Below, piece by piece: positions 1-48,180 of a DNA stretch of 64,000 nt. Under the pieces are notes generated by a model, which saw only the letters and a list, made by a program, of their open reading frames with translations, was not told the DNA's origin and made no database searches. The DNA lies in the NCBI GenBank assembly GCA_947629745.1, contig CANREZ010000002.1:210-64209 (forward strand), written 5' to 3'. Each line of letters starts with the position of its first letter. The stretch's first letter is position 1. This stretch comes from an uncultured Clostridia bacterium (GTDB lineage Bacteria > Bacillota > Clostridia > Christensenellales > UBA1242). Both the position numbers and the translations under genes were made by a program.

Positions 1-2044
1 TGTAATTTACACTCCAATCACTATCCTTGAGTGTGCCAAGGTCTATATTGAATAACTTGCCGAAATCTGCATTTGTGCCAAAGCCACCAAGTAGGGTAGA
101 TGTGTCAAACCTTATATTTAGTATCAAATTATTCTGTCCATTGCTTGGCAGGGTAATTGTGGTCTGTGCATTAATTGCCACATTTTCTATCAAGTCTAGT
201 TCTTGAGTGTCTCCGCTAGTAGTATTGAACGATGGTTGGATATCAAAGTCCTCAATCTTCCCACGTCTTAGATAGAAAGATACTACTTGTTCATCGCAGA
301 AGAATTTTATTTGGTCTGTATGGTCAGTAGATACAGTCAGTGTGCCATCGGTGACATCTTGTAAGTCGCCCTCGTTATTCAATTGATATTTTATAGGGCT
401 TGCGATAGTCTTGCCATCAGTACGGCTCTTAGTTACACTGAATGTCACACTGTCTAGTAGTGAGTGATAAGTATTGCCATTAGATATAGTTATATCGCCG
501 GATGTTACAGTCAACTTTTCAGCTTTTGCTGTAAATTTCAAAACAAGCGTGAATGATTTGTTGCCAATCTGCAGTGCGATAGTCTCGCCGTCGCACACAT
601 CGAGGCTAGTTAATGTAAGGGTGTTGCCCGAATATGTTACATTCACATAGCCATTTGACCTTGGGGGAGTTACTACCCAGTTTTCGGGATTTTCCACACG
701 CAAACTTACTTGCTCACCAATATTTGTGATGGTGATAGTATTATTACCACTGGAGGATAATTCATCGCCTCCGAGGAACACTTTTGAGTTATTTTGCATT
801 CCCGCTTTTGTGATATAGAATGAATCTGTCGTGTCAGATAGGGTATTAGTCTCTCTGCTATACACTTTCGCATGAACAAGTACATGTATGAAATTATTGA
901 AAGCAGGTAGATCTCCCCCCCCTACAACTTTGAACTGGCGGGCGACGTTATCGTAAGTTATTACATTAGGGTCACCATGACCACCACCAGTCACCTCACT
1001 ATCTAGCCCGCATTCCACACTCAGTATCTCTAAGTATGCATTTTGGTCTGGAATAGGATTGAGGTTCACTGGGATATGGTCGAGACCTAGGCAATCGTCA
1101 TAGTTTATCTCAGCCTGTCCACTAAATAATGTGTCTGCGAAGTGTCCCATAGTGGATAGGAATTTTAGTTCATCAGTTTTGCTATTCCCACGGTAGTCAG
1201 TGACGGTCACGGTCACAGTGACAAGTCCTGCCTGTGTGAATGTGACAAGGCCATCTTTACTCACCGTTGCAATATCTGAATTGCTAGAGGAATATGCATA
1301 TGTCACATCGCAGTTAGCTGGCGTAGTGGTTACTCTTGGGAAATTGATAGACTGCATCGATGTCTCAAGTATGGATTTTGATTTATCGAAAGATATGCTC
1401 TTTAGTTTTGCATGGCACGAGATAGTAGTGCTGGTCTTAATGATGCCATTGGTGTTATCGCGCGATGTAGCAGTGACTGTGACATCTCCATTGCCTTTTG
1501 CGGTCACTGTGCCATCTGCGCCGACTTCTAAGATATCGTTATCTGAGCTAGTCCAGTCTATAATCTTGTTGCTAGCTTCCTGAGGATAAATGCTGACAGA
1601 TAGCTTGAATGTATCACCTTCGTACAAGTCGGATACAGTATCTTTGAATTTCAATTGGTGAACGGATGTGTCGGTGAATATTAGCACCTTTTCTGCTTTT
1701 GCTGCCACATTTTCTCTACTTGTGACTGTGATAGTTGTCTCTCCATAAAATACTGGAGTGATGATGCCATTGGCATCGATTGTAGCCACAAGAGGATCGC
1801 TGCTACTGAAGATCAAATCTTTGTTCCTAGCATTGATCGGGAAGACATTGACTTGGTCCATTATATTGATCTTTTCGGCAGTAGTCATATCCTTGACTGT
1901 GAAAGCCTGAAAGTTTTTGTCCACAAACTCTATATTTTCCACATATATGTAGGTAGCAAGGCTAAGTATTGCCCCGCTAACGAGTAAGATAGCAAGGAGT
2001 ATTAGTGGCAATATTATGATTGTGGAGGCCATTAATTTTCTCAT
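1..2044 (-). CDS. Cell-surface protein, N-terminal 681 codons (gene continues beyond left edge); signal-anchor plus bacterial Ig-like (Big_2-type) repeats
   Basis: Absent from the ORF track because there is no in-window stop. ATG at 2044, 3 nt after the stop of the upstream permease gene. My translation stays open to position 2: MRKLMASTIIILPLILLAILLVSGAILSLATY..., then recurrent Big_2-like strands (GETTITVTSRENVAAKA, GNGDVTVTATSRDN, AGLVTVTVTVTDYRGN). No minus-strand ORF of this frame is listed, consistent with no stop. Confidence 0.8.
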   Translation of the reverse strand, partial: MRKLMASTIIILPLILLAILLVSGAILSLATYIYVENIEFVDKNFQAFTVKDMTTAEKINIMDQVNVFPINARNKDLIFSSSDPLVATIDANGIITPVFYGETTITVTSRENVAAKAEKVLIFTDTSVHQLKFKDTVSDLYEGDTFKLSVSIYPQEASNKIIDWTSSDNDILEVGADGTVTAKGNGDVTVTATSRDNTNGIIKTSTTISCHAKLKSISFDKSKSILETSMQSINFPRVTTTPANCDVTYAYSSSNSDIATVSKDGLVTFTQAGLVTVTVTVTDYRGNSKTDELKFLSTMGHFADTLFSGQAEINYDDCLGLDHIPVNLNPIPDQNAYLEILSVECGLDSEVTGGGHGDPNVITYDNVARQFKVVGGGDLPAFNNFIHVLVHAKVYSRETNTLSDTTDSFYITKAGMQNNSKVFLGGDELSSSGNNTITITNIGEQVSLRVENPENWVVTPPRSNGYVNVTYSGNTLTLTSLDVCDGETIALQIGNKSFTLVLKFTAKAEKLTVTSGDITISNGNTYHSLLDSVTFSVTKSRTDGKTIASPIKYQLNNEGDLQDVTDGTLTVSTDHTDQIKFFCDEQVVSFYLRRGKIEDFDIQPSFNTTSGDTQELDLIENVAINAQTTITLPSNGQNNLILNIRFDTSTLLGGFGTNADFGKLFNIDLGTLKDSDWSVNY
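915..922 (-). repeat. G8 homopolymer (C8 on plus strand) inside the surface-protein CDS, currently in frame (codons GTA GGG GGG GGA)
   Basis: Counted directly: c915-c922. Position 925 is a codon first base relative to the ATG at 2044 (1119 nt = 373 codons). Confidence 0.9.
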
Positions 2045-2047
2045 TTG

Positions 2048-3652
2048 TTACACCTCTATTTTCCTATATTTCTTGTTTACGGTGAAGTAGAATACTAAGA
2101 AGTTAACTAGTGCATAAATTAGTGCAATTGATATGATTACTAGATAGGTGATCCATGCGCCATTGGCCATGTACATCTTAGGGAATATTATGCTAAGACC
2201 ACCAAATAGTGCGGATATCACAAGACCAATTAGTAGCATATAGGTGACGTTAATTTCCTCAGCCTCGCCATTTGCCTTTGGCTTGATATTAGGATTTGAT
2301 AGATTGATATTTGCACCATTGAATACTGCACCTATCACGAATAGCACTTCACATATGACGAGCACTAGTATTTCTATAGCGCTTATGAATTGCAGTGCAG
2401 CTAGCACTATCACGCTGATAAGCAGTGCACCTAGGCTCACTGCCACATTAATTGCGCTCTTCACTAACATTTGTTTGCGATAAGATACAGGAACAAGTTT
2501 TGTTATATAAAAGTTTTTGCCCTCAATGCTCAGCACAATCGCAGAGAATGAACTGATCATTGCCATGAATACCGATACGACTAGAATGGATGCACCAAAG
2601 TTGATGCCGCTGCCAATAGATGCAGTACCTACTAGGCTCACTAGTCTATCGCAGAAGAATACCATGACAGGAGTTGCAATTGCCACACCTAGATAGAAAT
2701 ATGAGTAAGACTTTGTGTGCAATATATCGAGCAGCGTGTGCTTTAGGATAGCAAAGCCGCTACCGTAGTCATCCAATTTGCTAGTCTTACGGATTGCACC
2801 ATCTCCACTATCCAATTGCTTCGTGCGGATATGTACATAGACGAATTTTGCAAGGACTATGCCTATTGCAGAAAGGACAATAGTTGCGCCGATTATTATT
2901 CCAAAACTCATCCAGAATTTGTGGAAGAAGATGATGCCGGATAGATAATATCCTGGATTGTACAATTTATCTAATTGGGTAAGTAGGTTCCTCCAGATAT
3001 CCAGTGTGCCTTGCTCCCAATTCCTATTGATAAAGAATTTGGCAAGAGCAGTTAGCACGAAATAATATAGGGTGAATAATCCAGCAAGGAATATGATGAA
3101 TATGATTAGCTGAATTACATTGTATTTCTTAAGAAGTGAACTAATATACATGATAGGTATAGCAAGCAAGGTGGATAGTGCAAATGGTATCATTGGCAGG
3201 AATATCACGCCAAGTATTATGCCAAATACAAATGATGCCGTGATGCATCCCATTGCCCAGCCAAAGACTAACATCATTGGCACTAGGAAGATTGCGGAGT
3301 ATATAGTGAGGTCTATGTAATTCAAAATTAAATTGCTAACGAAAATTTTGAATGGACTAAGAGGGAATCTAGCAGTAATCTTGAGGTCAGCAGGGCGATA
3401 GAGCCTACTAATCTGCATGCTAGTAGCAAATATTGTAAGGCCGATTAATAGTAGCGTGATGTACATGACAGATAGTTGTCTCGGCTCGACATGAAGGCTC
3501 TCGCGCAGCACGTAGGATAATCCCCATACTAGCGCTAGGCATATAGCTACTGCGAGTAGGACGGCAACTGAGGTCATTATGGCGTTGCCCTTGCTATTAT
3601 TTTTGTTCCATCCCCATTTTAGTTTGAACTGTAAACGGATGAAATCAAACAT
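2048..3652 (-). CDS. Polytopic ABC-exporter permease (putative ABC_export-like, about 12 TM segments)
   Basis: 534-aa ORF, hydrophobic throughout. Overlaps the upstream ATPase gene by 8 nt and ends 3 nt before the next start, so it looks like an operon. Confidence 0.7.
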   Translation of the reverse strand: MFDFIRLQFKLKWGWNKNNSKGNAIMTSVAVLLAVAICLALVWGLSYVLRESLHVEPRQLSVMYITLLLIGLTIFATSMQISRLYRPADLKITARFPLSPFKIFVSNLILNYIDLTIYSAIFLVPMMLVFGWAMGCITASFVFGIILGVIFLPMIPFALSTLLAIPIMYISSLLKKYNVIQLIIFIIFLAGLFTLYYFVLTALAKFFINRNWEQGTLDIWRNLLTQLDKLYNPGYYLSGIIFFHKFWMSFGIIIGATIVLSAIGIVLAKFVYVHIRTKQLDSGDGAIRKTSKLDDYGSGFAILKHTLLDILHTKSYSYFYLGVAIATPVMVFFCDRLVSLVGTASIGSGINFGASILVVSVFMAMISSFSAIVLSIEGKNFYITKLVPVSYRKQMLVKSAINVAVSLGALLISVIVLAALQFISAIEILVLVICEVLFVIGAVFNGANINLSNPNIKPKANGEAEEINVTYMLLIGLVISALFGGLSIIFPKMYMANGAWITYLVIISIALIYALVNFLVFYFTVNKKYRKIEV

Positions 3653-4364
3653 TGTCCACCTCGTTTATTTCCATGAACATTTTCTCTAAATTCACATTTT
3701 TGGTACGAGATAGGTCGACTTTCTTCACAAGCTGTCCATGGCGAATGAATAACACGATGTCACAAGCTTTTGCCACAGTTTCGAGACTGTGAGAGGAGAA
3801 TAACACTGCGTGATTCTCATCAGCGTATTCCTTGATATATTTTACCAGTAATGCCATAGTCTGAGGGTCGAGTCCCACCATTGGCTCATCTAGCACCCAC
3901 AACGATGGGCGGTGAACCAGAGCACCCAGTATGCAAATTTTTTGTTTCATACCATGAGAGTAGCTCGCGATCTGATTGTCCAGTGCGTATTCTATATCAA
4001 AGAGCTTTGCTAGTTCGCCCACGGCGTATTCCTTTTGCTCCTTGGTCGCACCATATAGGCTGCCCATATAATTGATATATTCTCTGCCAGTCAATTTGTC
4101 ATAGACAGAGTGGTCATCAGGCACATAGCCTATGTGTTTCTTTGCCTGCTCAGGCTCGTTATTGATATCATAGCCACAGACAGTGATTGTTCCTTCACTG
4201 AATGGTAATACTCCGATCAAACTCTTGATGATAGTGGACTTGCCAGCGCCATTGCTACCGACTAGTCCCACGACTTTGCCAGCAGGGACAGTGAACGATA
4301 TGCCCTTTGCTGAGTACTTATCATTTGCGGGATACTTTTTAGATAATTTCTCTACTTTTAGCAT
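3645..4364 (-). CDS. ABC transporter ATP-binding protein
   Basis: Walker A GSNGAGKST, signature-like YSHGMKQK, Walker B LWVLDEP, H-loop SSHSL. RBS GGAGAAAATAATG upstream. Confidence 0.9.
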   Translation of the reverse strand: MLKVEKLSKKYPANDKYSAKGISFTVPAGKVVGLVGSNGAGKSTIIKSLIGVLPFSEGTITVCGYDINNEPEQAKKHIGYVPDDHSVYDKLTGREYINYMGSLYGATKEQKEYAVGELAKLFDIEYALDNQIASYSHGMKQKICILGALVHRPSLWVLDEPMVGLDPQTMALLVKYIKEYADENHAVLFSSHSLETVAKACDIVLFIRHGQLVKKVDLSRTKNVNLEKMFMEINEVDNV

Positions 4365-5128: not shown

Positions 5129-5260
5129 CTATACCATGAAGAGTGGCGGAGGGACAGACCCTATGAAACCACAGCAACCTACAATTTTGCAAGGTGCTAA
5201 AGTCTGACCGATGGGTAATAAAAAGTATAGGATCCCACCGGTAGCGATGGGATTTTTCTT
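5129..5260 (+). promoter_or_regulatory. SAM-I (S-box) riboswitch with intrinsic terminator
   Basis: P1 CTATAC (5129-5134) pairs with GTATAG (5225-5230). Conserved cores are AGAGTGGCGGAGGGAC, CCCTATGAAACC, GCAACC and GGTGCTAA. Terminator ATCCCA (5232-5237)/TGGGAT (5248-5253) is followed by TTTTTCTTT. It lies directly upstream of metK. Confidence 0.9.
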
Positions 5261-5287
5261 TGCTCTTTCATGGGAAAAGGAGTATTT

Positions 5288-6373
5288 ATGAAAAAGATTA
5301 TAACAAGTGAGAGTGTGAATTGTGGTCATCCAGACAAGACTTGTGATATCATCGCAGATAGCTTCCTCGATGCAGCACTAGAGTCTGACCCAAATGCACA
5401 GATGGCGGTGGAATGCGCCATAAAGTCGGACAAATTATTCATCTACGGCGAGGCTACCACTACGGCAAAAATTGACTATGAGAAGATCGCGCGCGAGGTA
5501 TTAAAGGATATTGGCTACAAGCAGCCATTCAAAATTTATAAGACCATCACTGAGCAAAGTCCAGATATAAGCCAAGCGGTGAAGCGTGAGGAACTATGCG
5601 CCAACGATCAGGGAATGTGCTACGGCTATGCTACAGATGAGACGCCCGAGTACATGCCCATGCCAATAATAATGGCACATCGCCTCATGCGAAACTATGA
5701 GACATTTAGGAGAAACAATGAGGGATTCTTCGCCGATGCGAAGTCCCAAGTATCTATCGAATATGCGGACGACAAGCCAGTCCGTGTAGATACCGTGTTA
5801 ATATCTGTCTCGCACAGAGAGGACTTAGAGCCTGCATTTATACGCGAGACTATTTACAAAAACGTCGTATTGCCTACGCTAAGGAACTATCCAAATGTGT
5901 CGGTGGAGAACACACATTTTATCATCAACCCTAGTGGTAAATTCACCATCTGGGGCAGCGAGAGTGACAGCGGATGCGTGGGAAGAAAAATTGTGGTGGA
6001 TACCTACGGTGGAGTTGGTCGTGTAGGTGGAGGATGTTTTAGTTCTAAAAACGCTACCAAGGTCGACCGATCAGGTGCATACTACGCGCGATATGTAGCA
6101 AAAAATATTGTCGCACATGGTCTTGCACATAGGTGTGAGATACAGATAAGTTTTGGCATTGGGCTTGCCGAGCCGCTTAGCCTATACATCGATACTTTTG
6201 GCACAGAAACTGTACCACTTGAGGAAATCTATTCATATGTGCGTGAGCACTTTGACTTCCACTTATCCAATATTATCCGCGAGCTGGACCTATTGCGTCC
6301 TATATACAAAGCTACTGCCTGCTATGGGCATTTTGGCCGACCAGAATTCCCATGGGAGAGGATTATAGAATAG
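5288..6373 (+). CDS. metK: S-adenosylmethionine synthetase
   Basis: ORF track 5270..6373. I prefer the ATG at 5288 (MKKIITSESV...), preceded by GGAAAAGGAG. Motifs: GHPDKTCD, ANDQGMCYGYA, GGGCFSSKNATKVDRSGAY. Confidence 0.93.
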   Translation: MKKIITSESVNCGHPDKTCDIIADSFLDAALESDPNAQMAVECAIKSDKLFIYGEATTTAKIDYEKIAREVLKDIGYKQPFKIYKTITEQSPDISQAVKREELCANDQGMCYGYATDETPEYMPMPIIMAHRLMRNYETFRRNNEGFFADAKSQVSIEYADDKPVRVDTVLISVSHREDLEPAFIRETIYKNVVLPTLRNYPNVSVENTHFIINPSGKFTIWGSESDSGCVGRKIVVDTYGGVGRVGGGCFSSKNATKVDRSGAYYARYVAKNIVAHGLAHRCEIQISFGIGLAEPLSLYIDTFGTETVPLEEIYSYVREHFDFHLSNIIRELDLLRPIYKATACYGHFGRPEFPWERIIE

Positions 6374-6398
6374 TTGATAAGAAAGGTTATTCAATTAC

Positions 6399-6963
6399 TT
6401 AGTAGGAACAATGTTGGAACTAAGGTGGGTGCAAAGGCTGCTCAATGTGGCACTCCACTTTCCTGGGGGATATTTTAATTTAACAAATTATTATATTGTT
6501 ACTATTTTTGTTTAGCCAACCCATATTGATAGAGAGTGCAGGAGTTGGTAGCAAGAGAGATAAAAGCTGGCTCAATCCCCTCAGTCACCTAATCGGTGCC
6601 AGCTCCCCCTACTACGGGGCGCCTAAATGAGGTCAAGAGATAATATTTATATTTGCGCGGCGCCTTTAATAGGTTTAAGATATATAAAATTAGGTCAAAA
6701 GACCTAATTAATAATAAGTTTATTAAAAAAGAAAAATTATATTTTTAATTTTTAATTATCTATTCACTTTTCACCATATAAGGCTCCCTTTTAGTAAGGG
6801 GAGCTGGCGGAGACTTCCGTCTGAGGGGATTGAGCAGGCTTACGGACCTTCTTAGGTTCGCGCACACTTGCCCACTGAAAAATAAAGTAAAGATAAGGAA
6901 GAAATATTAACATAAAAGATAAAAATAAATTATTAACACAAGATATAATCCTATAATCAAGGA
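6399..6963. repeat. Composite hairpin-repeat locus B: V(+) 6399-6471, U(+) 6541-6645, spacer, U(-) 6781-6880, tail to 6963
   Basis: Same order and near-identical spacer as locus A. It carries an extra 41-nt insertion (6624-6664) ending in a duplicated GGCGCC, and ends with the same AATCAAGGA as locus A. Confidence 0.85.
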
Positions 6964-6977
6964 AAGCGGCTCGCCAC

Positions 6978-7006
6978 AAAAAAAGACCACGGGCGTGGTC
7001 TTTTTT
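6978..7006. terminator. Bidirectional intrinsic terminator between convergent metK-side and glycosyltransferase-side transcription
   Basis: AAAAAAA-GACCAC-GGGC-GTGGTC-TTTTTT. Confidence 0.8.
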
Positions 7007-7048
7007 GCTATCGATAATTTAGTAAAATTTCGTGTACAGGAAATTTAG

Positions 7049-7236
7049 TTATAAGGACTATATATTTGATTTATAAGATGCATATATCTATTAGATGTCT
7101 ATTAGTCCTATATTGATTAATTCCACAATATATTAGGTCCTATAGAGTCTTACTAATTCTACAAGATATTAGATTCTTAATGGTTATTAATCCCACAAGA
7201 TATTAGTCCTATAAGGCAATATATTAGTCCTAAAAG
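7049..7236. repeat. Array of about 16-bp sites, core ATATTAG(G)TCCTATA: five direct copies plus one inverted copy
   Basis: Cores at about 7100-7115, 7129-7145, 7166-7181 (degenerate), 7200-7215 and 7221-7236. Inverted copy TTATAAGGACTATAT at 7049-7064. Three copies are preceded by TTAATyCyACAAkAT. Confidence 0.7.
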
Positions 7237-7245
7237 TTGTTTACA

Positions 7246-7851
7246 CTATTCAGTTACAGTTTTTTGGGTTTCTGTAAAAGTTCCGTTATCATTTGTGTAA
7301 TATTTGATGGTATTTGATTTTGCATCAAAGATAGCAAAGTCAAAGTTGTAGTCCTTATCCTGATTCATCTCAAATAGATAGGTATTAGGATTCTTTACTA
7401 GTGTGCCGTATGTCTCGTCTGCGGCGTCGAGTTTCCTAATAGCGTAATCTATCTTGGTGTTGTACTCGCTGTTGACACTGGATAGTTCACAATTCCAAAT
7501 GCCCTCAGCTTGACTGTCTTCGAGTGAACTGAATGTAGAGCTGCCATAGCCTATTGCCATAACTTCTGGATTGAAGAAGAATATTAGCTCAGCTGGTATG
7601 GATGCTTCCATATCATATAGACCGATTGAAGCACGGGTCTTTGCTTGGTCTGGATACTGTAGATATGGATATCCTGGGTGACCTTTGTAGTAGAATACAT
7701 ACTCGTCACCATAATATGCGCGGGAAGCCTTGACATAATCGGTGAAGTCATCCTCACTGATTGGAGATGAACCGACGATGACGATCACTTTCTTATTTTG
7801 GTCAGTTGCTTCCTTAAACATATTGTCGCCGAAATTGTACAATTCTTTCAA
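7246..7851 (-). CDS. C-terminal half of a split GT80-like (PmST1/Photobacterium-type sialyltransferase-like) glycosyltransferase
   Basis: The track start is a TTG with no RBS. The frame stays open upstream to the G8 tract. VIVIVGSS...YVFYYKGHPGYP...SIPAELIFFF...GYGSSTFSSL parallels the PmST1 motifs FIFTGTT...KIYFKGHPRGG...ISFEVLMMTG...GVASSLYFSL. Confidence 0.6.
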   Translation of the reverse strand: MKELYNFGDNMFKEATDQNKKVIVIVGSSPISEDDFTDYVKASRAYYGDEYVFYYKGHPGYPYLQYPDQAKTRASIGLYDMEASIPAELIFFFNPEVMAIGYGSSTFSSLEDSQAEGIWNCELSSVNSEYNTKIDYAIRKLDAADETYGTLVKNPNTYLFEMNQDKDYNFDFAIFDAKSNTIKYYTNDNGTFTETQKTVTE

Positions 7852-7907
7852 TTCTTGCTTCTTTGTCTCATCAAATTCCTTTAGGAGGTTATAAAGTGCA
7901 AAAACTT

Positions 7908-8924
7908 CTAGTTTCTCCCCCCCCTGTACTCGGCAAGTTTTGCCGTGATAGTTGGAGCATCAGCCCTTGTGATATCGCTAATCAGCCATAGTTTGAAGTT
8001 ATCCTCATTCTCTAGCATTGGGATGGTGTAATTATTGATATTCTTTGATAAAATTCCACGAGTTGAAGCGTGATTGCTAATTGCTGTGGTGTATGCTATA
8101 TACTCATTGCTGAGTTTATCTAGATCATCATTAAATGTATTATCATCCTTGTATACTTCGTTGAATACAGCCTTGGATGCAGTACCATCGGAGATGAGTG
8201 TGACATCGTACAATTCTTTTGGTAAATTATTGCCGTATGTTACGTCCAAGCTCCCTTGTGGGTGATAATCGTTGTAGAAGAAGTGAAATTTGGAAGTCTC
8301 ATCTAGGCTGTGCAATTCCTTCACCCAAGCAGCGGTCTTGGAATACATTTCATTGGCATCCCCGATATGAGATGTTGTGAATTTTGCCACTGGGATTAGA
8401 TGCACATTCTCTGGCATTTTGGAGTAATCCCATGCTTGGTCTCTCTGGAACCACACAAAGGTTGGGATGGTGTAGTTACTTGTAATCTCCTGTAATTTAA
8501 TAGAGAATACAGTGACTGGCACAGTTGCAACTAGTGGGGCGATGATATACTCATCGGACGTGATTGCAAGAGTCTTCTTCTCACTATCCTTTGCATTCTT
8601 TAGGTGAGCGGTGAGTGAGACATTGTTGTTACCATAATATCCAGGGATATCTACATAACCCTTAGCAAGTTCACTAGAATTACGGATATCATAGTAGTTG
8701 TATGTGCCATCGAATAGTTTGTTTTCAATCTCTAATCTATCTGGCACGTTGTTTGACTCCCATGTCACTCTAATCGTTTCGTTATCGACTTTGGATAATT
8801 CGACCGATTTTAGTTCCATGGAGTAGTCGTACACGAATAGTGGCAATAAAAGTATTACTGTCACTACGATAGCAATAACTGCTACGACGGAAACGCTAGC
8901 AATTATTATCTGCTTCTTAGTCAT
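7908..8924 (-). CDS. N-terminal half of the split GT80-like glycosyltransferase (TM anchor, small beta-sandwich domain, first Rossmann half)
   Basis: 338-aa ORF with N-terminal TM helix IIIASVSVVAVIAIVVTVILLLPLFV. VTLISDGTASKAVF resembles PmST1 LNLYDDGSMEYVDL. It stops 2 codons after the G8 tract. Confidence 0.6.
   Translation of the reverse strand: MTKKQIIIASVSVVAVIAIVVTVILLLPLFVYDYSMELKSVELSKVDNETIRVTWESNNVPDRLEIENKLFDGTYNYYDIRNSSELAKGYVDIPGYYGNNNVSLTAHLKNAKDSEKKTLAITSDEYIIAPLVATVPVTVFSIKLQEITSNYTIPTFVWFQRDQAWDYSKMPENVHLIPVAKFTTSHIGDANEMYSKTAAWVKELHSLDETSKFHFFYNDYHPQGSLDVTYGNNLPKELYDVTLISDGTASKAVFNEVYKDDNTFNDDLDKLSNEYIAYTTAISNHASTRGILSKNINNYTIPMLENEDNFKLWLISDITRADAPTITAKLAEYRGGRN
7917..7924 (-). 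repeat. G8 homopolymer (C8 on plus strand) at the junction of the two glycosyltransferase half-ORFs
   Basis: Counted directly: c7917-c7924. With 8 G the upstream frame reads TAC AGG GGG GGG AGA AAC TAG. With 9 G it reads ...GGG GAG AAA CTA GAA..., which is the frame of the downstream half. Confidence 0.9.
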
Positions 8925-9272
8925 AAAACCTTTTTACCTCCTAAATTTTTTTGACCAAAAATAGTCTACTAAAATTTGTCGCATTATGTCAAACGATTGT
9001 ACCTTGTAATTAATAAGGTTATAAATATACTAATTAGTGGGCTCCTTTTATGGCCAAAACTGTTAGAGTAAGGCAAATAGATTGCGATGATAAAAACTAG
9101 GACAAGAGACATAAAATTTTATTTCTATATAGTAACTACTTCTATACTAAAACACAGTTAATGTACTACACAGATATATCTCCTGACAAAAAGTGCTAGG
9201 TTAGTGACAAAAATTATATTATAAAATATTTGCCGAAGAACCTCGAAATATGTTGTATAATGGGGGATTTTT

Positions 9273-10512: not shown

Positions 10513-13500
10513 ATGAAAAAATGGAAAGGTATAATACTCACATCTGCGCTACTTGGCACAATTGGTTTTGCTGGGTGCGGATGTCAGAATGAGATCCCGG
10601 ATATAGATCTGCCGACTAATATCGTTGTGCAGAATGAGACCGAAGTGCAGGAAGTGCTAGGTCTAGGGCAGACCCGAGATATTACATATAGGATAATTCC
10701 TGACGGTCTAAAGCCTGAGTACGACGATGTGCGTATTACTTTTGATAAGACTGGAATTGTGGAGTTTGCCGATGGTGGCGGTAGCGACCGTATTGAGGGA
10801 TTTGATACTTTTACCATCAAGGCAATAGGAGAGGGCACAGTCACCATCACTGTCACCACTCGTCATAGGGCATTGTCTGCTAGTATCACCATAGAAGTGG
10901 TGGATATCGAGACCCTTGCTACTCCAAGTATTTCTTGTGATGGCACGAAGATATCTTGGGATGCAGTGAATAACGCCCAGGGCTATATAGTGCGTGTCGC
11001 AAAGGGTAACGAAACTCCTAGGACATACCAAGTAGACGCTAATACCAATACATACACATTGCCAGAAGACTTCCGTCAAGATGGCGTGCAGTACACCGCA
11101 TCTGTCCGTGCAATTGGCGATGGCAAGAAATATCTTGCTAGCCCATATAGTGCAGGTTATACATTCTCGTTCCTGCCACTGGTGAGTGACTTTACCATTG
11201 ACGGCACGAAGTTTGTATTCGAGCCAGTAGATGGCGCTACTTCGTACTCGGTCACTATCAATAATAACGAGCATGATGTTACTTTTAATACTACTGACAC
11301 CACTTTTGATTTAGTGGAAAAAGCTGGCGTAACGGCCGATAGATACACTGTTAGGATTTTGCCACAAAATGAGTCTGCAAATGTGTTCCAGAGTCACCAG
11401 GCGTCTGAGGGTGAGTTCACAGTAAATAAACTAGCTACTGTAAGTAATATCACCACATCAGTCGATGCTACGACTATATCTTTTGATGCAGTCACTGGCG
11501 CTGAGAAATACACATATTTATTTACGCAACAGGGTAGAGATACGACTATCACCAAGACTTCGACTAACCCATCGCTTGAGATTTCATCATTAGAGGAAAT
11601 TACAGCAGGGCAGTGGACAGTGAAGATTTACCCATCTAGCCACACTATGGTGGATGGAGATAGCACTGAGTATTCATTCGAGAAATTAGGCGAGGCTGGG
11701 GAATGCACTATATCGAATAACCAGCTGACTATCGCTGAGGGAAATATTACGGCTAGCAAGTACCGCCTGACATTCGTGGATACTATTACGGGTGAGAAAA
11801 CCTATTACACATCCACCAATAGGACGGTGGACATATTGGCAGCTCTGGATAGCAAATCCGGGAAATACGAATTGTACATCGCACTGGCAGGTACAGATGG
11901 CGAGCAACAGGTCACAGGTAACGATAGCGAGACCGCGCTAGAATTTACTATCCTAGCACTGCCAACTGTGACAAAATACACGAATAATCACAATCTATCT
12001 AGTGATACATATACACACGGCCATGAGACTATCACCTGGAGTGCAGTCGAGGGTGCGGTAAGTTATAATGTGTATATTAAAAATGGTTCGGGATTTGAGT
12101 GCATAGGAAGTGTTACTGCTAATGATTCAGAAGAATATTCATTTGAGTTAAATGAAAAATTTAACACACTCTTAGCTGGTGAATATGGCATATATGTGAG
12201 TGCAGTTGGTGACGGCACAGATTATTTATCCAGTAAGACGCTAAAGAATGAAGAAGTCGCCGATTACAAGATAACGAAGCTAAATAACGTTCAAGCCGAG
12301 ACCGCAACATTCGATGAGACTACTAATAAACTTACATGGGCTGCAGTCGAGGGTGCAGCAGGCTATGCGCTGAGTTTTGACGGCGGGAAAACATATTATC
12401 AAACTAGTGAAAATGCTTATTATGTTACACAAAATCTAAGTGAGACTACGAGTGTCACAATTATTGCACTTGGTTATGATAGCATTGGAAGTGATACATC
12501 CAATTGGTCGGCAAATAGCAATAGTGGATCGCTTTATACTATCAAGAAACTGCAGAAGATAAGTACGGTAAATACTTCAGGTGGCAAACTGACCTTCACC
12601 GACCCTAACACAAGTGATAGCATTGCAGGACTTAGATATGTTATCTCAAATGATTCTAGGATATTAGCAGAGTTCCGCGATGTTGAGGCAGCTGAGGGTG
12701 TCATAACTCTAGACCTTGATGCGCTAAATCTCGATGGCGGCACTTATACAATAAAACTATCCGTGCGCGGCACAGGTTGTCTTGATAGCGATGAGACCGA
12801 AGTAACAATCAAGGTATTAAATACGATTGGCAATTCGACCGTTACATATTCAAATGATGATACATACAAGTTAAATTGGGATAGTATAGAGGGTGTCACG
12901 TCGTATAGTTTCGAGGGATATTATCTCGACAACGGCGGGAATAAACACATTATTCCAACAGATGTTGTTAATGGAATATTAGGAAATGATCACAAATTAG
13001 ACGCAACCAAACTTGCTAGCGGCACATACAAATATCGTCTGCGCGCAATGGGTGGCACTATCACTGAGACTGAATATATATCCAGCAAATGGTCCGAGGA
13101 ATTCACATTCGTGGTGTTCCCAAAAGTCAGCGTAAAGACTGAGGACAACAAACTCGTGTGGAACGCTTCCACTGTTGGCAACCTGTCAGCAGATCAATAC
13201 GATATCTATATGGCAAATGGCACAGGAGATGAATACAAGAAAGTCGGCACAGTAAGTGAGGGCTTAGAGTTTGATTTAGCAAAGGTTACTGAGGCAAGTG
13301 AAGCTGGCACATACAAATTCTATGTCGTGCCATATGGCACACTGACCGACACTGTAAAGGGTGCAAACTCCGATGTGTTGACTCTAACAAAGAGTGATAA
13401 ATTATCCGAAGTAACTGTAAAGAGTGGTGTCCTAACCTGGACAGATGATGTAGATGGTGAAAACGTCACTTACCTAATCTTTGAGGGAGATACATTACTC

Positions 13501-16500
13501 GGCACAACAGCTGAGAAATCGATTCTAGATATATTTGATGCAGGGAAGGAGTATACTGTAAAAGTTGTGCGCCGCACAGTAGGCCAGATGGATTCTGTAG
13601 CAAGTGACGAGATATCATTTACTAGACTTGTGGCTCCAGCTAACTTCGTTGTGGCAAATAACGTCATCACATTTGATGCAGTAGAGAATGCTACTGGATA
13701 CCGCGTGACTGATGTAGGCAGTAGTGGCACTTGGCAGATAAATGTTGGCGATGATGGCAAAGTAACATTTGATTTACGTCAATATGGCATCACAGGTGCA
13801 CACCACTTGCAGTTTGTGGCACTTGGCAGCGAGACGGCAAATGGCGCAAACTATCTAAATAGTGCACCAAGTGTAGCTGTGGGTTGCTCAGTACTTGCTA
13901 ACCACATTTCGCTCGCTATTACCGATGGCAAACTCACTTGGACCGCCGAGTCAGGCGATATCTCAGGTTATGAATTGCATATCTACACCAAGACGGGTTC
14001 AGGTGATGAATATAGCGAAACTACAACCAAGATTTTTGATAGCAATACTCGTACATACGACTTCCAGGGACTTGCTGGTGAATACTATGTGAAGATCCTT
14101 GCAAAAGGTAACAACTTAGAGATATTCGACAGTGTGCTGACCAACGATTACTTCCATGTAACCAAACTCGCAACTCCACAGATTACACTCAATCTTGGCT
14201 CAATCAAGTTAGTCAAGGATAACAACATAAGTGGATGCAAGTTCACTCTATATCGTGGAGGAGAAGTATTAACCACACTAGCAGATAGCGAGAGTTCATA
14301 TTTTGACTCAACCGCTATGACCGGCAATGTGTATGCATATAGCCTAGTGTTAACCAAAGACGGGTGTGTGTCTAGTGACGTGTCAAAGGCTCTTCGTGTG
14401 CAATATCTAGATATTGTGACCGGACTAAGACTTGTAGAGGGTGACAATATGAATGTCACACTACAATGGGCACCAGTAGAACACGCAAATGGATACAATG
14501 TATATAGAGTGTTAGATAATGGAATACATCAGTTAGTCACAACTGTTGAGTCAGGTGTTACATCAATTGATGTGGATTTGCTAGCTAATTCACAAGGCCA
14601 CATTGTAATCCAAGCAATTGGTGGCAATGTAGGATATAGCGATATAACGGACGGAGATGAAGCACAAGGTTATTGTAACGGTCAATACAGTGCCGAGATA
14701 GAATTATTCATCCTAGCACAAGTTACTGATCTAAAATTGACCAACGGTGTCCTCACCTGGACGGATGCGGAGAACGCAACTGAGTATCTAGTGCGCGTTT
14801 ACAAAGTAGAGGGAGATGGCCCAAGGCAACTCGTGGCAAGCGCATTTGTGGCAGGCACAGAATATAGGTTTGAGACTGAGGTCGACGGCGAGTACTGCGC
14901 AGAGGTCTACACCATCGGTGATTACAGCCAAGGCACAGGATATATCTCAAATAAAAATCCTAAGATACTAGATCACGTATTCAAGCACAACGTGTTAGAA
15001 ATGGATACAGTCAAGATGAAGAATGGATTGTTTACATTCGATGTATCTGTTAACGAATTAAAAGATGTGTTAAGTGTTTTACCAGAAACTAATAAACTAT
15101 CTAATAAAGAATTAGGACAAGTTGCAGAAACAATTTTTGCAAGGTTTAGCGAAGGCACTGAGCTTACTGGTGAGATAGTTATAAGCGGTGTGCATATCAA
15201 TGTGAAGGATGCATCGGATGCTTTGTATCATCTATTCTATCTAGATGTCGCGTATGACAAGATAGCTAATTTCGGAGATATCACCACATCATATGAGTAT
15301 AGTTATGGCAATCTAGCAAGGTCGGTGAGCTCGACTGATGCTGGTATCACAGTGACCTTTGATTTCCTACTAGGTGAGGGATATTACAACATGATGTTCT
15401 GCACATCGGGTAATAGCGGAGACGAGGAGTCTACATACAAGCTTTACCTTGCAGGCAACATGACCGATAACATCAAGGTGTACAAAGCCTTGACTCCAAC
15501 TCCAGTGCAACATGGTGAATTACAACATTACATCATCGACGGCGATGTGCATTTCAACCGCGTGTATTACACCGAGGATAATGAGCAAAAGGAAAGTGGT
15601 TATGTCGTGGAAGTCCGCTACACATTAAGTGGCAGAAGATATACTAGAGAACACGAAGTAACGCAGGAAGAATTAAAAGAAGCAGCAGGTATTGTCAAGC
15701 TAGATACATTGGTTAATGAATTTAACCTCCCAACTGCAACCACACTTCAAATTAGTGTGAGGGTAAAGGGTTCTACTGGAGAGATAAACACAGATGAGAT
15801 AATTATCAGCCGTGGCAGTCTGGATGTAACTAGCGAGACCAAGATATTGCCAACGCCAAGTGTATCTGTGCGTGGTGGACACGCTGAATGGATAGCAAGC
15901 GGTGAGGCAAGTTATCAGCTAGTTAAAATTTATAACGAACGCAATGAAATATTAGACGAAAGACAATTAGTCCCAGTGATTAGTGAAGTGTTAGGTGTAA
16001 CGCCTGAGAGCGCTCCAACCTATATCACCAACGGTGGATTCCGCGTGAGCAAGGATATGACACAGTTTATGACCACAGCACTTGGAGCTGGAACTAACTA
16101 CAACATAAGCGTGCAGGAGTGCGGAAATAATGTTGACTTGATAGACTCCAAAGTATCCGCAAATATTACATTCAATATACTTGAGGAAACTGTAAAAGAC
16201 TTTAGGTACGAGGGTGGAAATATTATATTCTCTGGTAAGAATAGCGCTCAAGTGACAGTCTATAGGGTAGATACTGAGGGCAACCTCGTAGCATTCAATC
16301 CAATTGTGCTAAATAGGAGTGACGCAACAACTAGTGGACAAGGTGACGGATTCTACACATTCACATTCACTATGCCATCGACATTCGAGACATATGATGC
16401 CGAGGGCAACAAGATTGACTACAAGATAGGTGTGAGAGATTATCCAGCAGGCATTAGTGGATCAAACTTAGTAAGTACCGAACACATGTTAGATAAGACC

Positions 16501-19245
16501 TTCAATAGAGCAGATACTATAGATATTAGTTCTGTGACAATTGATGGGCAGAAGTTAAGATGGACCGGCGTGGACTATGCAACTGCATACGAAGTGAGTG
16601 TGAGCGGTGTCAATGTGGGCGAGTTAACACACGTTGATGATGATAACCCATTAGACACTGAGATTGACTTGACGGAGTTCCCAGGTGGTATGTATCAAGT
16701 GGGTATTCGCGCTACATCATCTGCACAGCCAGTGGATTCAGAAAAACAACTCCTGCTTGGTCAATACGCTTATGTGACTATCACGAAGTACGACGCACCA
16801 GAGATTAGACTAAAAGACGGTCAATTGTATTGGGGCGTGGAAGACACCATGATTGCTAAGAACACTAGCCATGTGGAAGTGAAAGACGAGAGTGGCACTG
16901 TGATATATTCTAAAGACTTAGAGAGTGCTACATTCGACTTTGCAACTGAGATGACAAATGACGATACAGTGTTTGACCCAGGCACATACACAGTGGCAGT
17001 AAGCATACTAGCAACTCCTGGCACAAAGGATATGACTAGCCCAATTGAGGAGATTGAGGTAAATTACTTAGGTGCACCAACTGTGGATACTGTAAGGGAG
17101 ACACTAGATAATACTCCAGCAGTGAAGGTGACAGTAGAGCAGCACGCTAGCGGATACAGATTCACTTGTGTGACGCATACAGCGGATGACACTGAGTCTA
17201 CAATGTTCCTATACGATGTGTATTTGACAAGGACAGAAGAGCTAAGAGTCGACCGTGTGGCTGTGACTGAATACTACTACGATATAGAAAACGAGCAGTT
17301 TGTCTTAAGAGCTGATCAATATGATCTACAAGACTTTAATGAAAAAGTATACATTGGTGAAGATCAATGCCTATACTTCTACACCAAGAATGTAACCTTG
17401 CCAGTAGGTGGCAGTGACTTTGAGATAACAGTCCGTGCAATTGGTGGCGAGATGGAGGAAGTCACATACGTTTCGGGCAAACCAGCAGAGACTATCTACA
17501 TCACCACTCCAACCCAGCCTAAGAGTGTGAACGTAAATGCACAAACAGGTATGGTCACATGGACTAATGACAAACAAGGATTCTACTCACATATTAGATA
17601 CACTATCAAGCAGACATTAACGAATGATTATACAATAGAGACCCTTGCTAAGAGATTTGCTAAGTTTGAGAACAAGACTATCTACAAACTAGCAAGTGAC
17701 AACCACAGAGTTGTATATAGCGCAGACGCAGACAATGCAAGTGAGTTTACTGCAAACACCGAAGTCTATATTGAGATAGAGGAAGCACTAGATCAGAATG
17801 TACAACAATTTAGATTGAAGACTATTGGCTCATACAGCAATATCTACATCTTCAATATGTCTAGCACGGGTGAGATCTCGGAGAATTCAGATATCTATTC
17901 AGCCGAGTTTAGACCATTTGAGTCTGGTGATGGTACGACCGAGTATCCATATATCATCAAGACTAGTGATCATATGAATAGGCTAAATGTATTTGGTACT
18001 GAGAATTATCAATACAAAGTCGAGGCAGAGAGCTTAACTATCGCAATGTTTACTACAATTAGCACGTTCAATGGAACTATAGACTTTGGCACATCGAAGA
18101 TTACTTATTCGGCAAGTAATGCATTTATAGAAAACCTTGCAGGCAAAGTATATTCAAGCGATAAATCTGCTGAAATTACAATTAGCAGTAATATCAATTA
18201 CTTCATCCATAGCATTGCCCATGGTGGGAATTTGAGCGATATTAAGTTCGTCCTATCATCAGTAAATAAGACTATATCTAGTGGCACAACGGGTGTGTCG
18301 TTAATCACTACAAACAATGGCACAATCAGTGGACTGGATATAAGCGTTGGTGAGATGAATTACACTATCCAAAATAGCGGTTATGTCGCACTACTTGTTG
18401 GCACGAATGATGGCCAGGTGAGCGATATCAATATCCATGCAATTGAGAATACTGGCAAGATAAGGGTCACTACACAGGCTGCAAGTTACATCTCCGCAGT
18501 GGCATACAGGAATGGTTCTAACGGAACTATGAGGAATATAAAAGTAACGTTAGATATAGAAGTAGATGAGACGAATAATTCTATCAGCTACGTCTCCACA
18601 CTTGCTACCTACAACCATGGAAGTATTACATTAGCTATCGTGAAGAGTAACTTAACCAGTAAACACAGCAGCTTGTCTGGTGGTGTGAACTGGAACTTAG
18701 GTTCACTCGACCAAGTGTCCTATCAAGGTAAGTTGACTATTACCGAATCAAGTAACAATAGCATCTACGCAGTGGGATTAGTTGGCATTATGACAGATAG
18801 CCTAAATATTGGTGGATCTAGTTATCAGTCAAATAGTGTGACGGTATCCAATTGTTACACCATTATTGAATCAGTGAATATTACAAGCGGCCGTGCAACG
18901 GTGGCAGGACTCATCGGCTCAACCAATGTGAAGAGCACATTCAAGGTCGAGAACTCCTACACAATAATTGCATCAATTAGTACAAATGGAAGTCTCACAG
19001 TAGGATTAGTGACAGGTAATCCAAATACAAATAACAATTACACCAATGTCTATTACTTAGCAGTGAATGGATACAATGCTACGTCAGGCACAACGGGTAT
19101 AACCGGTGCAAGCAGCACAGATGCATTCACTACACAGAATGGAAATGCTATAACTCTTGGAGATAAATTCAAGAGTACTAAGACGCAGATTACATTTGAT
19201 GAAAAGACTTACTATATCTATGAGTTTGCTGAGGTGACTGACTAG
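10513..19245 (+). CDS. Giant surface lipoprotein (2,910 aa): Big_2 domain, at least 18 FN3-like repeats, C-terminal GLUG-type beta-helix region
   Basis: Lipobox GFAGC. N-terminal TFTIKAIGEGTVTITVTT resembles Big_2. An ~85-90-aa repeat carries the signature W/F-x-A-V-x-G-A-x-x-Y (ISWDAVNNAQGYIV, ITWSAVEGAVSYNV, LTWAAVEGAAGYAL, LQWAPVEHANGYNV, LTWTDAENATEYLV, LRWTGVDYATAYEV and others). The C-terminal part starts GDGTTEYPYII and contains VALLVGTNDG, AVGLVGIM, VAGLIGST and TVGLVTGN. Confidence 0.9.
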   Translation: MKKWKGIILTSALLGTIGFAGCGCQNEIPDIDLPTNIVVQNETEVQEVLGLGQTRDITYRIIPDGLKPEYDDVRITFDKTGIVEFADGGGSDRIEGFDTFTIKAIGEGTVTITVTTRHRALSASITIEVVDIETLATPSISCDGTKISWDAVNNAQGYIVRVAKGNETPRTYQVDANTNTYTLPEDFRQDGVQYTASVRAIGDGKKYLASPYSAGYTFSFLPLVSDFTIDGTKFVFEPVDGATSYSVTINNNEHDVTFNTTDTTFDLVEKAGVTADRYTVRILPQNESANVFQSHQASEGEFTVNKLATVSNITTSVDATTISFDAVTGAEKYTYLFTQQGRDTTITKTSTNPSLEISSLEEITAGQWTVKIYPSSHTMVDGDSTEYSFEKLGEAGECTISNNQLTIAEGNITASKYRLTFVDTITGEKTYYTSTNRTVDILAALDSKSGKYELYIALAGTDGEQQVTGNDSETALEFTILALPTVTKYTNNHNLSSDTYTHGHETITWSAVEGAVSYNVYIKNGSGFECIGSVTANDSEEYSFELNEKFNTLLAGEYGIYVSAVGDGTDYLSSKTLKNEEVADYKITKLNNVQAETATFDETTNKLTWAAVEGAAGYALSFDGGKTYYQTSENAYYVTQNLSETTSVTIIALGYDSIGSDTSNWSANSNSGSLYTIKKLQKISTVNTSGGKLTFTDPNTSDSIAGLRYVISNDSRILAEFRDVEAAEGVITLDLDALNLDGGTYTIKLSVRGTGCLDSDETEVTIKVLNTIGNSTVTYSNDDTYKLNWDSIEGVTSYSFEGYYLDNGGNKHIIPTDVVNGILGNDHKLDATKLASGTYKYRLRAMGGTITETEYISSKWSEEFTFVVFPKVSVKTEDNKLVWNASTVGNLSADQYDIYMANGTGDEYKKVGTVSEGLEFDLAKVTEASEAGTYKFYVVPYGTLTDTVKGANSDVLTLTKSDKLSEVTVKSGVLTWTDDVDGENVTYLIFEGDTLLGTTAEKSILDIFDAGKEYTVKVVRRTVGQMDSVASDEISFTRLVAPANFVVANNVITFDAVENATGYRVTDVGSSGTWQINVGDDGKVTFDLRQYGITGAHHLQFVALGSETANGANYLNSAPSVAVGCSVLANHISLAITDGKLTWTAESGDISGYELHIYTKTGSGDEYSETTTKIFDSNTRTYDFQGLAGEYYVKILAKGNNLEIFDSVLTNDYFHVTKLATPQITLNLGSIKLVKDNNISGCKFTLYRGGEVLTTLADSESSYFDSTAMTGNVYAYSLVLTKDGCVSSDVSKALRVQYLDIVTGLRLVEGDNMNVTLQWAPVEHANGYNVYRVLDNGIHQLVTTVESGVTSIDVDLLANSQGHIVIQAIGGNVGYSDITDGDEAQGYCNGQYSAEIELFILAQVTDLKLTNGVLTWTDAENATEYLVRVYKVEGDGPRQLVASAFVAGTEYRFETEVDGEYCAEVYTIGDYSQGTGYISNKNPKILDHVFKHNVLEMDTVKMKNGLFTFDVSVNELKDVLSVLPETNKLSNKELGQVAETIFARFSEGTELTGEIVISGVHINVKDASDALYHLFYLDVAYDKIANFGDITTSYEYSYGNLARSVSSTDAGITVTFDFLLGEGYYNMMFCTSGNSGDEESTYKLYLAGNMTDNIKVYKALTPTPVQHGELQHYIIDGDVHFNRVYYTEDNEQKESGYVVEVRYTLSGRRYTREHEVTQEELKEAAGIVKLDTLVNEFNLPTATTLQISVRVKGSTGEINTDEIIISRGSLDVTSETKILPTPSVSVRGGHAEWIASGEASYQLVKIYNERNEILDERQLVPVISEVLGVTPESAPTYITNGGFRVSKDMTQFMTTALGAGTNYNISVQECGNNVDLIDSKVSANITFNILEETVKDFRYEGGNIIFSGKNSAQVTVYRVDTEGNLVAFNPIVLNRSDATTSGQGDGFYTFTFTMPSTFETYDAEGNKIDYKIGVRDYPAGISGSNLVSTEHMLDKTFNRADTIDISSVTIDGQKLRWTGVDYATAYEVSVSGVNVGELTHVDDDNPLDTEIDLTEFPGGMYQVGIRATSSAQPVDSEKQLLLGQYAYVTITKYDAPEIRLKDGQLYWGVEDTMIAKNTSHVEVKDESGTVIYSKDLESATFDFATEMTNDDTVFDPGTYTVAVSILATPGTKDMTSPIEEIEVNYLGAPTVDTVRETLDNTPAVKVTVEQHASGYRFTCVTHTADDTESTMFLYDVYLTRTEELRVDRVAVTEYYYDIENEQFVLRADQYDLQDFNEKVYIGEDQCLYFYTKNVTLPVGGSDFEITVRAIGGEMEEVTYVSGKPAETIYITTPTQPKSVNVNAQTGMVTWTNDKQGFYSHIRYTIKQTLTNDYTIETLAKRFAKFENKTIYKLASDNHRVVYSADADNASEFTANTEVYIEIEEALDQNVQQFRLKTIGSYSNIYIFNMSSTGEISENSDIYSAEFRPFESGDGTTEYPYIIKTSDHMNRLNVFGTENYQYKVEAESLTIAMFTTISTFNGTIDFGTSKITYSASNAFIENLAGKVYSSDKSAEITISSNINYFIHSIAHGGNLSDIKFVLSSVNKTISSGTTGVSLITTNNGTISGLDISVGEMNYTIQNSGYVALLVGTNDGQVSDINIHAIENTGKIRVTTQAASYISAVAYRNGSNGTMRNIKVTLDIEVDETNNSISYVSTLATYNHGSITLAIVKSNLTSKHSSLSGGVNWNLGSLDQVSYQGKLTITESSNNSIYAVGLVGIMTDSLNIGGSSYQSNSVTVSNCYTIIESVNITSGRATVAGLIGSTNVKSTFKVENSYTIIASISTNGSLTVGLVTGNPNTNNNYTNVYYLAVNGYNATSGTTGITGASSTDAFTTQNGNAITLGDKFKSTKTQITFDEKTYYIYEFAEVTD

Positions 19246-47997: not shown

Positions 47998-48180
47998 GGG
48001 ATTAGATATATTATATTTTATATAATATACATTTATGAAACTGTGACAAGGCAGGGAAAATTTTGATGCAATTTTGCTACAAATAACTAGTCCCTCAAAC
48101 TATCTAAAAAGTGGCTCGTATAATTTGCCAAAATTTAGATAAAATTCACCCTTTTGTAAATACTAAAAATGGAGATAACT

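Follow-up and report, generated by a model that had tools for sequence, protein, structure and literature searches.

The window analysed here is a 64,000-nucleotide (64-kb) stretch of DNA from an uncultured Clostridia bacterium (Christensenellales, UBA1242; assembly GCA_947629745.1, contig CANREZ010000002.1, positions 210 to 64,209 of the forward strand). Its minus strand carries a gene for a predicted exported protein that resembles the sialyltransferases of glycosyltransferase (GT) family GT80, and this gene is broken in two at a run of eight G residues. The run (G8) occupies positions 7917-7924, with G on the minus, coding strand and C8 on the plus strand. Read on the minus strand, the sequence across it is ...GAG TAC AGG GGG GGG AGA AAC TAG. 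The locus comprises the following features, where ON and OFF refer to tract lengths that do or do not restore the complete open reading frame (ORF):

7246 to 8924, minus strand: complete gene as read with G9; encodes a predicted exported, GT80-like (sialyltransferase-fold) protein of 559 residues
7908 to 8924, minus strand: ORF open in the G8 state; 338 residues, ATG start, TAG two codons past the tract
7246 to 7959, minus strand: open frame of the C-terminal half; uninterrupted through the tract, without a ribosome-binding site, TTG at 7851 the sole start
7246 to 7851, minus strand: C-terminal ORF; 201 residues, TTG start
7917 to 7924, minus strand: G8 tract, the proposed slipped-strand switch; ON with G9 or G6, OFF with G7, G8, or G10
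8937 to 8942, minus strand: Shine-Dalgarno sequence AGGAGG, 12 nt 5' of the ATG at 8924
8963 to 8992, minus strand: candidate sigma-70-like promoter, the best upstream match (TTGACA, 18-nt spacer, TAGACT; 10/12, by consensus match only)

This is one monocistronic gene broken at the G8 run. Its homologues are single ORFs of 555-600 residues that span 92-99% of the repaired protein; the two ORFs therefore belong to a single gene, one half each. The 338-residue ORF covers the signal anchor, an immunoglobulin (Ig)-like domain, and the N-terminal Rossmann half, and an identical product is present in NCBI (P0001). The frame of the C-terminal half holds the HP, Glu, and Ser-Ser-Thr motifs, all described below, along with a C-terminal beta domain. 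All 21 residues that are invariant in the family remain intact across both halves, and there are no further stops or frameshifts. When the tract length is altered in silico, G9 yields an ORF of 559 residues and G6 one of 558, both free of stops and collinear with 65 homologues; G7 and G10 fail to restore the frame. In the structural model, the tract-encoded residues R336-G-G lie in the loop that joins helix 324-335 to strand 339-342.

The initial annotation of this DNA had read the 338- and 201-residue ORFs as halves of one enzyme. It placed the end of the first two codons past the run, described the second frame as open back to the run with no ribosome-binding site and only a TTG start, and predicted that one added G would create a stop-free ORF of about 559 codons. 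The homologues and the sequence bear out this description in each particular.

What does the gene encode? By itself, the repaired protein retrieves nothing useful from sequence searches of Pfam, NCBIfam, or PDB. (It has no match to PF11477, the GT80 or PM0188 family, even at E <= 1, and likewise none to PF07388, the GT38 family.) The AlphaFold (AF2) model has a mean local confidence (pLDDT) of 91.5 and a global score (pTM) of 0.87, and its predicted layout comprises four parts: a helical transmembrane anchor (residues 2-31); an Ig-like beta-sandwich (38-121); a GT-B domain (125 to about 480); and the C-terminal beta domain (494-553). Foldseek comparison with PDB returns GT80 sialyltransferases as all 12 best matches (E 3e-14 to 2e-9): the alpha2,6-sialyltransferases of Photobacterium damselae and strain JT-ISH-224; the alpha2,3-sialyltransferase of P. 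phosphoreum; the P. dagmatis sialyltransferase; and PmST1 of Pasteurella multocida. Matches to the Ig-plus-GT-B enzymes 4r83 and 2z4t extend over about 485 aligned columns. GT1 enzymes (UGTs from plants and bacteria) make up a second tier, from about 1e-5.

Conservation within the family points the same way. An alignment of 66 family sequences contains 21 invariant residues, including D246-G247, H416-P417, E446, and G459; residues S462 and T464 are nearly invariant (at least 90% conserved). A profile of the family, compared with PDB sequences, finds PmST1 as its best match (E 0.005), and the resulting alignment pairs YYKGHP with YFKGHP, AELIFF with FEVLMM, and GYsSsT with GVASSL. The corresponding codons in the window are these:

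8184 to 8189, minus strand: D246-G247 (LISDGTAS, against LLSDGTAS in the family alignment), invariant in all 66 sequences; candidate counterpart of the D/E-D/E-G motif
7675 to 7680, minus strand: H416-P417 (YYKGHP), the invariant HP motif, aligned to YFKGHP of PmST1
7534 to 7590, minus strand: E446 (7590-7588, AELIFFF) through S462-S463-T464 (7542-7534, GYGSSTF), by profile alignment

Residues E446 and S462-S463-T464 align to those of PmST1 that bind the ribose and phosphate of cytidine monophosphate (CMP). The D/E-D/E-G motif holds the catalytic base in bacterial sialyltransferases, and the position of D246 in the modelled fold suggests that it is the equivalent of PmST1 D141. The residue before D246, at the first acidic position of the motif, is Ser or Thr in this family. 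A profile of the N-terminal Rossmann half matched no sialyltransferase among the PDB sequences, and the proposed D/E-D/E-G equivalence is thus one of position in the fold.

Most family members contain no Pfam domain at all. Weak matches to PF11477 occur in 8 of the 66 (best 6.5e-5) and to PF07388 in 16 (best 1.6e-7), which places the family between GT38 and GT80 by Pfam, with more matches on the GT38 side. One member bears the NCBI name "alpha-2,8-polysialyltransferase family protein". Together, the predicted fold and the donor-site motifs support a GT80-like protein that lies outside both Pfam families. The GT80-like assignment made in the initial annotation therefore stands for fold, as structure prediction of the repaired protein affirms, and for motifs; it does not stand for membership in the sequence family. 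The presumed activity is transfer of a nonulosonic acid, to an acceptor that is likewise presumptive.

The catalytic domain is predicted to lie outside the cytoplasmic membrane, to judge from the N-terminal anchors and lipoboxes found across the family. In the window protein, the sequence MTKKQ precedes a hydrophobic helix of 25 residues, a predicted N-in signal anchor. An N-terminal hydrophobic segment is present in 63 of 66 homologues, bearing out the transmembrane anchor noted earlier, and 28 of 66 have a lipobox-like motif. Two lipoprotein signals are clear: ...FCLIGCGDN in the homologue at locus L030, and ...IALSACGQQ in the species represented by locus L059. Distant members are fused to surface domains of the Big_2, Flg_new, or BspA-type leucine-rich-repeat classes. 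Export of the whole family, if these predicted signals are read correctly, goes beyond what the initial annotation had proposed. CMP-sugars in Gram-positive bacteria are cytoplasmic, and an exported nucleotide-sugar transferase would be unusual for such an organism.

The G8 run stands out from its surroundings. The window has a G+C content of 41%, and in its 64 kb only two G/C runs reach six or more residues: 915-922 and 7917-7924, each exactly eight long and each with G on the minus strand. Against a first-order Markov model, runs of five number 9 where 25 are expected, and runs of six or seven number 0 where 5.9 are expected (none of 300 simulations gave 0). Runs of at least eight number 2 where 0.30 are expected; 4% of Markov simulations reached two, as did 6 of 100 dinucleotide shuffles (expectation again 0.30). 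G/C runs are generally purged from the window, with these two long outliers excepted. (The initial annotation had called runs of eight unusual and counted two.) Both outliers are coding-strand G within genes for N-terminally anchored surface proteins, the second being:

915 to 922, minus strand: second G8 run; coding strand, in frame (VVGGGDL), inside a surface-protein gene at 2047..<1

The latter gene encodes a transmembrane-anchored protein of at least 682 residues with three Big_2 Ig-like domains, and lies just downstream of a gene pair for an ATP-binding cassette (ABC) transporter ATPase (3645-4364) and permease (2048-3652). This gene is a probable second contingency locus, in its ON state.

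Relatives of the window gene were sought by scanning one genome per GTDB species. This identified 277 loci, of which the best 80 were analysed. Among these 80, 11 of the 14 G/C runs of at least eight residues fall within the homologous gene or no more than 300 bp upstream, a zone of 176 kb that makes up 18% of the DNA; the other 810 kb contains three (binomial p = 1.3e-6). All 11 runs in the gene zone are G on the coding strand. Their sites vary. Tracts within coding sequence are found at codons 9-11 (L014), in the signal peptide (L059), just past the transmembrane helix (L005 and L002), and in the Ig-like domain (L022 and L030). The L047 tract lies in a promoter spacer (TTGACT-N7-G8-TAAAAT), that of L067 abuts a TATAAT box, and that of L032 occupies the position of the ribosome-binding site. 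In L019, a G8 run lies some 150 bp upstream; in L076, G11 at the 5' end accompanies shifted frames. The proteins that bear these tracts are mostly 30-54% identical to each other (L014 and L019, at 96%, are the sole close pair). Because the proteins are so diverged and the sites differ, most of the tracts likely originated independently. Both states are represented: L005, L014, and L030 are ON, with G9 in frame, and L002 (G9), L022 (G8), and L059 (G8) are OFF, frameshifted exactly at the tract.

Tract length also differs between copies of one orthologue. Conceptual repair of the L059 gene to G9 gives a protein identical over all 575 residues to P0230, which comes from other samples. DNA for the 575-, 561-, and 560-residue members of the same 90% cluster, along with L059 itself, provided 17 assemblies, whose flanks are identical. 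Among them, G9 occurs in ten (ON, 575 residues), G10 in five, G8 in one, and G7 in one. The L047 orthologue, represented by three contigs that encode an identical protein of 565 residues, has G8 in the promoter spacer of two and G9 in the third. A comparison of related strains, proposed when the locus was first described, thus reveals the length polymorphism in two orthologues. Moreover, L014, L019, and their relatives in the 90%-identity cluster exhibit four forms at the same site: G9; C-G5-T-G3 (10 nt, frameshifted); C-G4-T-G3; and AAGGTTGGG. This series looks like the birth, slippage, and decay of a tract. Since the orthologue lengths vary in both directions, they are explained neither by systematic undercalling of the homopolymer nor, at all well, by recoding of a fixed sequence.

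Some further runs and breaks were noted along the way. The three long runs outside the gene zone include G14 at L010 (10049-10062), which spans codons 7-11 (MNKRKLQGGGGDSG...) of a gene for a transmembrane-anchored surface protein. In a metagenome-assembled genome (MAG) of Clostridia, that gene comes immediately after the GT80-like homologue, on its downstream side, and likely is another phase-variable gene. The others are G9 at the 3' end of a nucleotidyltransferase/aminotransferase-like ORF (L075, 5464-5472), and an intergenic C9 upstream of glmS (L050, 85-93). One family member (P0204/P0206, compared with P0113 on a 40,303-bp Logan contig) is split into ORFs of 296 and 279 residues in three to four assemblies; the break follows "...QVAKK", apparently an A run rather than a G run, and may be either real or an error. 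The 334-residue members of the P0139 cluster were considered as split copies and rejected, being an unrelated metallophosphoesterase-like protein.

Copies of the window allele itself were recovered through exact look-up of the 191-residue, ATG-started C-terminal fragment, which identified two ENA contigs from other assemblies. Identity to the window is 100% over 2265 bp (6281-8545) for one and over 1541 bp (6810-8350) for the other, and both have G8. Identity this complete, over up to 2.3 kb, means that the three copies are effectively one strain. G8 is the dominant allele of the window strain where it was sampled. No other strain of this gene was found in GTDB species representatives or metagenome contigs, the nearest relative being 46% or 41% identical.

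These observations are best explained if the window gene is phase-variable and was sequenced while OFF, a reading to which we assign a probability of roughly 0.65. The coding-strand G8, in a loop between the two Rossmann halves, would act as a hypermutable simple-sequence repeat (SSR), and slipped-strand mispairing at replication would add or remove G residues. With G9 (or G6), the cell would make the complete 559-residue enzyme. With G8, translation would terminate after 338 residues, leaving a membrane-anchored Ig-like domain and half of a GT-B domain, with no donor-binding half. Cells that have an activity modifying surface glycans would then coexist in the population with cells that lack it. 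The initial annotation had proposed phase variation from the window alone. For the family this claim holds, through the recurrent coding-strand poly-G tracts, the ON and OFF alleles, and the two polymorphic orthologues; for the window locus the evidence is indirect. Switching, then, is strongly supported for the family, which, rather than the window locus by itself, carries the proof. That the window tract switches at a useful rate is presumed from this family behaviour.

Several observations weigh against this reading. No length variant of the window tract was found: it is G8 in all three copies, which possibly derive from one study. No full-length 559-residue allele is present among 5.8 billion protein clusters. 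Eight residues is at the short end of the tracts known for fast switching. The homologous mid-gene site is without a tract in every relative, and elsewhere in the family the tracts occupy the promoter or the 5' end of the gene. A second set of loci, 77 from metagenomes and most of them long forms that are only distantly related, contains no such G tracts, and the trait is therefore confined to part of the family. Finally, the 64-kb window contains no genes for synthesis of nonulosonic acids, sialic acid, or CMP-sugars.

Stable loss of function offers an account that is unlikely on balance but has real points in its favour. Here, deletion of one base from a G9 run would have made the gene a pseudogene of this lineage, and the tract would be a mutational hotspot rather than a switch that is kept. 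The uniformity of G8 in the window strain, the absence of an ON allele from the databases searched, and the mid-gene position all suit this account, and the close pair L014/L019 provides a precedent, in that tract decay to C-G5-T-G3, with a frameshift, apparently locks the gene OFF. Nevertheless, a decaying gene fits poorly with two halves that have acquired no other stop or frameshift and retain every invariant residue. The tract, too, is pure and unbroken, and persists where G/C runs otherwise are purged. As for uniformity, the three copies amount to one strain at 1.6-2x coverage.

A homopolymer error in sequencing or assembly, such that the true length is G9 and the gene is intact, was the alternative raised in the initial annotation. 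G homopolymers are error-prone, and three orthologues are ON at G9. However, two SPAdes assemblies made independently from other samples also give G8, and no other homopolymer-associated frameshift was found within the 64 kb: T7 and T8 runs interrupt none of the ORFs in which they lie, and two very long ORFs, one of 8.7 kb and one of more than 15.8 kb, read through without a break. Error is therefore very unlikely, and the lengths seen in the L059 species, which depart from G9 in both directions (G7 and G8, and G10), do not resemble a systematic undercall.

Least probable of all, and hardly to be expected, is recoding, whereby the G8 allele would yield full-length protein either by -1 ribosomal frameshifting on G_GGG_GGG or by RNA polymerase slippage that adds a G: AGG GGG GGG does set G GGG GGG in register, such that a -1 shift would give exactly the G9 product, and all four OFF alleles (window, L002, L022, and L059) need the identical +1-nt correction, but the 87 nt downstream form no stimulatory structure (minimum free energy -8.8 kcal/mol, z = +0.55), the tracts of relatives lie in promoters and at varied coding sites, and length variation at the DNA level, which includes G10 OFF alleles that require the opposite shift, explains the data better.

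The surroundings of the gene give few clues to its role. In the window, its neighbours are metK with an S-adenosylmethionine (SAM) riboswitch, a gene for a TMEM164-like membrane protein, and one for a giant protein of 2910 residues. Relatives exhibit no conserved operon or neighbourhood. In the L059 species, the first 4 nt of the GT80-like gene, beginning at its ATG, are shared with the end of a GT2 (Glyco_trans_2_3) gene that lies upstream, and a gene for an M60-like (mucin-targeting) peptidase of 1480 residues converges on it; these neighbours hint at surface polysaccharide or mucin biology. (In the L059-species loci L171-L185, from mouse gut, this arrangement concerns positions 1-404 and about 2248-2528.)

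Other features of the window deserve mention. The SAM (S-box) riboswitch occupies 5131-5217 on the plus strand (56.5 bits), directly 5' of metK (5270-6373). Between metK and the 3' end of the GT80-like gene is an unusually long non-coding stretch of 872 bp (6374-7245). Just past the stop codon, at 7114-7236, this stretch contains about five copies of a 20- to 23-nt motif (ATAGGACTAATATMTTGTGGRATTAAT-like) spaced at 21-36 nt; elsewhere it contains a 21-nt inverted repeat (6564-6584 and 6821-6841). Rfam and tRNA scans of this long intergenic region detected nothing. Two giant ORFs on the plus strand, 10513-19245 (2910 residues) and 48160-63999 (more than 5280 residues, running off the end), are both unbroken, have essentially no Pfam domains above threshold, and presumably encode huge surface proteins.

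How does the predicted enzyme relate to characterized sialyltransferases? Its best structural matches are GT80 enzymes (PF11477; structures 4r83 and 2z4t, and 2ex1 and 2ihz for PmST1), with the KGHP, Glu, and Ser-Ser motifs of the donor site aligned to those of PmST1. Like the Photobacterium enzymes, it has an export or anchor signal, then an Ig-like beta-sandwich, then GT-B, a topology that resembles the Photobacterium lipoproteins. In contrast, identity to GT80 enzymes is just 11-14%, and similarity is below all Pfam thresholds; Ser or Thr replaces the first acid of D/E-D/E-G; and the C-terminal beta domain is extra. Hosts differ as well: GT80 enzymes come from marine or pasteurellacean Gram-negative bacteria, whereas this family resides in Gram-positive gut Clostridia. 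The second comparison is with GT38 (PF07388), exemplified by NeuS of E. coli K1 and SiaD of N. meningitidis serogroup B. The HP motif is common to both, as the weak matches noted above reflect, but no GT38 structure is among the 50 PDB fold matches listed. Moreover, GT38 enzymes are capsule polymerases that act at the cytoplasmic face and are encoded in capsule loci, whereas the window gene is stand-alone and its product is predicted to be exported.

GT80 enzymes are capable of a trans-sialidase mode. This invites a tentative proposal, one with the odds against it: a large, exported, surface-tethered GT80-like family might act extracellularly on host sialosides (as trans-sialidases) or on scavenged CMP-sialic acid, sialylating the surface of its own cell or remodelling mucin glycans, with many lineages independently placing it under poly-G phase variation. 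This would amount to SSR-based contingency behaviour, at multiple loci, in uncultured Clostridia that are not pathogens. The family may also prove a source of sialyltransferase or trans-sialidase activities that work outside the cell, relevant to mimicry of host glycans and to chemoenzymatic synthesis.

The wider interest lies in the organisms. Invertible DNA accounts for nearly all the phase variation mapped in gut commensals. In uncultured gut Clostridia, one family of surface enzymes has gained coding-strand poly-G repeatedly, and metagenomes of a single species differ in tract length in ways that turn the gene ON or OFF. Moreover, genes of this kind are split or truncated in MAG annotation and are under-counted as a result.

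The mechanism itself is familiar: this is classical slipped-strand phase variation of an enzyme for surface glycans. The closest functional precedent is meningococcal siaD (GT38), which is turned ON and OFF through slippage in an intragenic poly-C tract. Other phase-variable glycan enzymes include those for lipooligosaccharide in C. jejuni (poly-G), lic3A of H. influenzae (tetranucleotide repeats), and the lgt genes of Neisseria (poly-G). Shared features are an intragenic repeat that toggles the frame of a surface-glycan enzyme, and G on the coding strand, together with bimodal tract lengths, a genome depleted of G/C runs, and the presence of ON and OFF alleles among isolates (PMC11868660 and general knowledge). 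The Campylobacter, Haemophilus, and Neisseria examples come from Gram-negative mucosal pathogens, and their enzymes (GT42, GT25, and others) are cytoplasmic; the window family has uncultured Gram-positive commensal hosts and an enzyme predicted to be extracytoplasmic.

Among Gram-positive bacteria, SSR switches have been reported in S. aureus (2025 preprint). A 2025 review lists Clostridia with inversion-type switches only, and asks if repeat-based phase variation at multiple loci is restricted to pathogens (PMC11868660). The open-access literature searched yielded no account of this protein family, nor any report that gut Clostridia switch genes through poly-G. A close parallel is provided by the sortase-dependent pilin genes of Bifidobacterium breve, which are switched by replication slippage in poly-G (PMC9187656). 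Here too the host is a Gram-positive gut commensal, and a gene for a surface protein is annotated as two ORFs around a G tract; moreover, the proportion of ON variants rises in vivo, and this class of gene has tracts in several species (PMC9187656). The parallel has its bounds: B. breve belongs to the Actinobacteria, the genes encode pilins, and maximum-depth sequencing was used to measure switching in B. breve (PMC9187656), where the present case infers it from assemblies. Set against all of these systems, what is new in the Clostridia is the taxon, the unannotated family of GT80-like proteins with predicted export, and the recurrent, independent recruitment of tracts.

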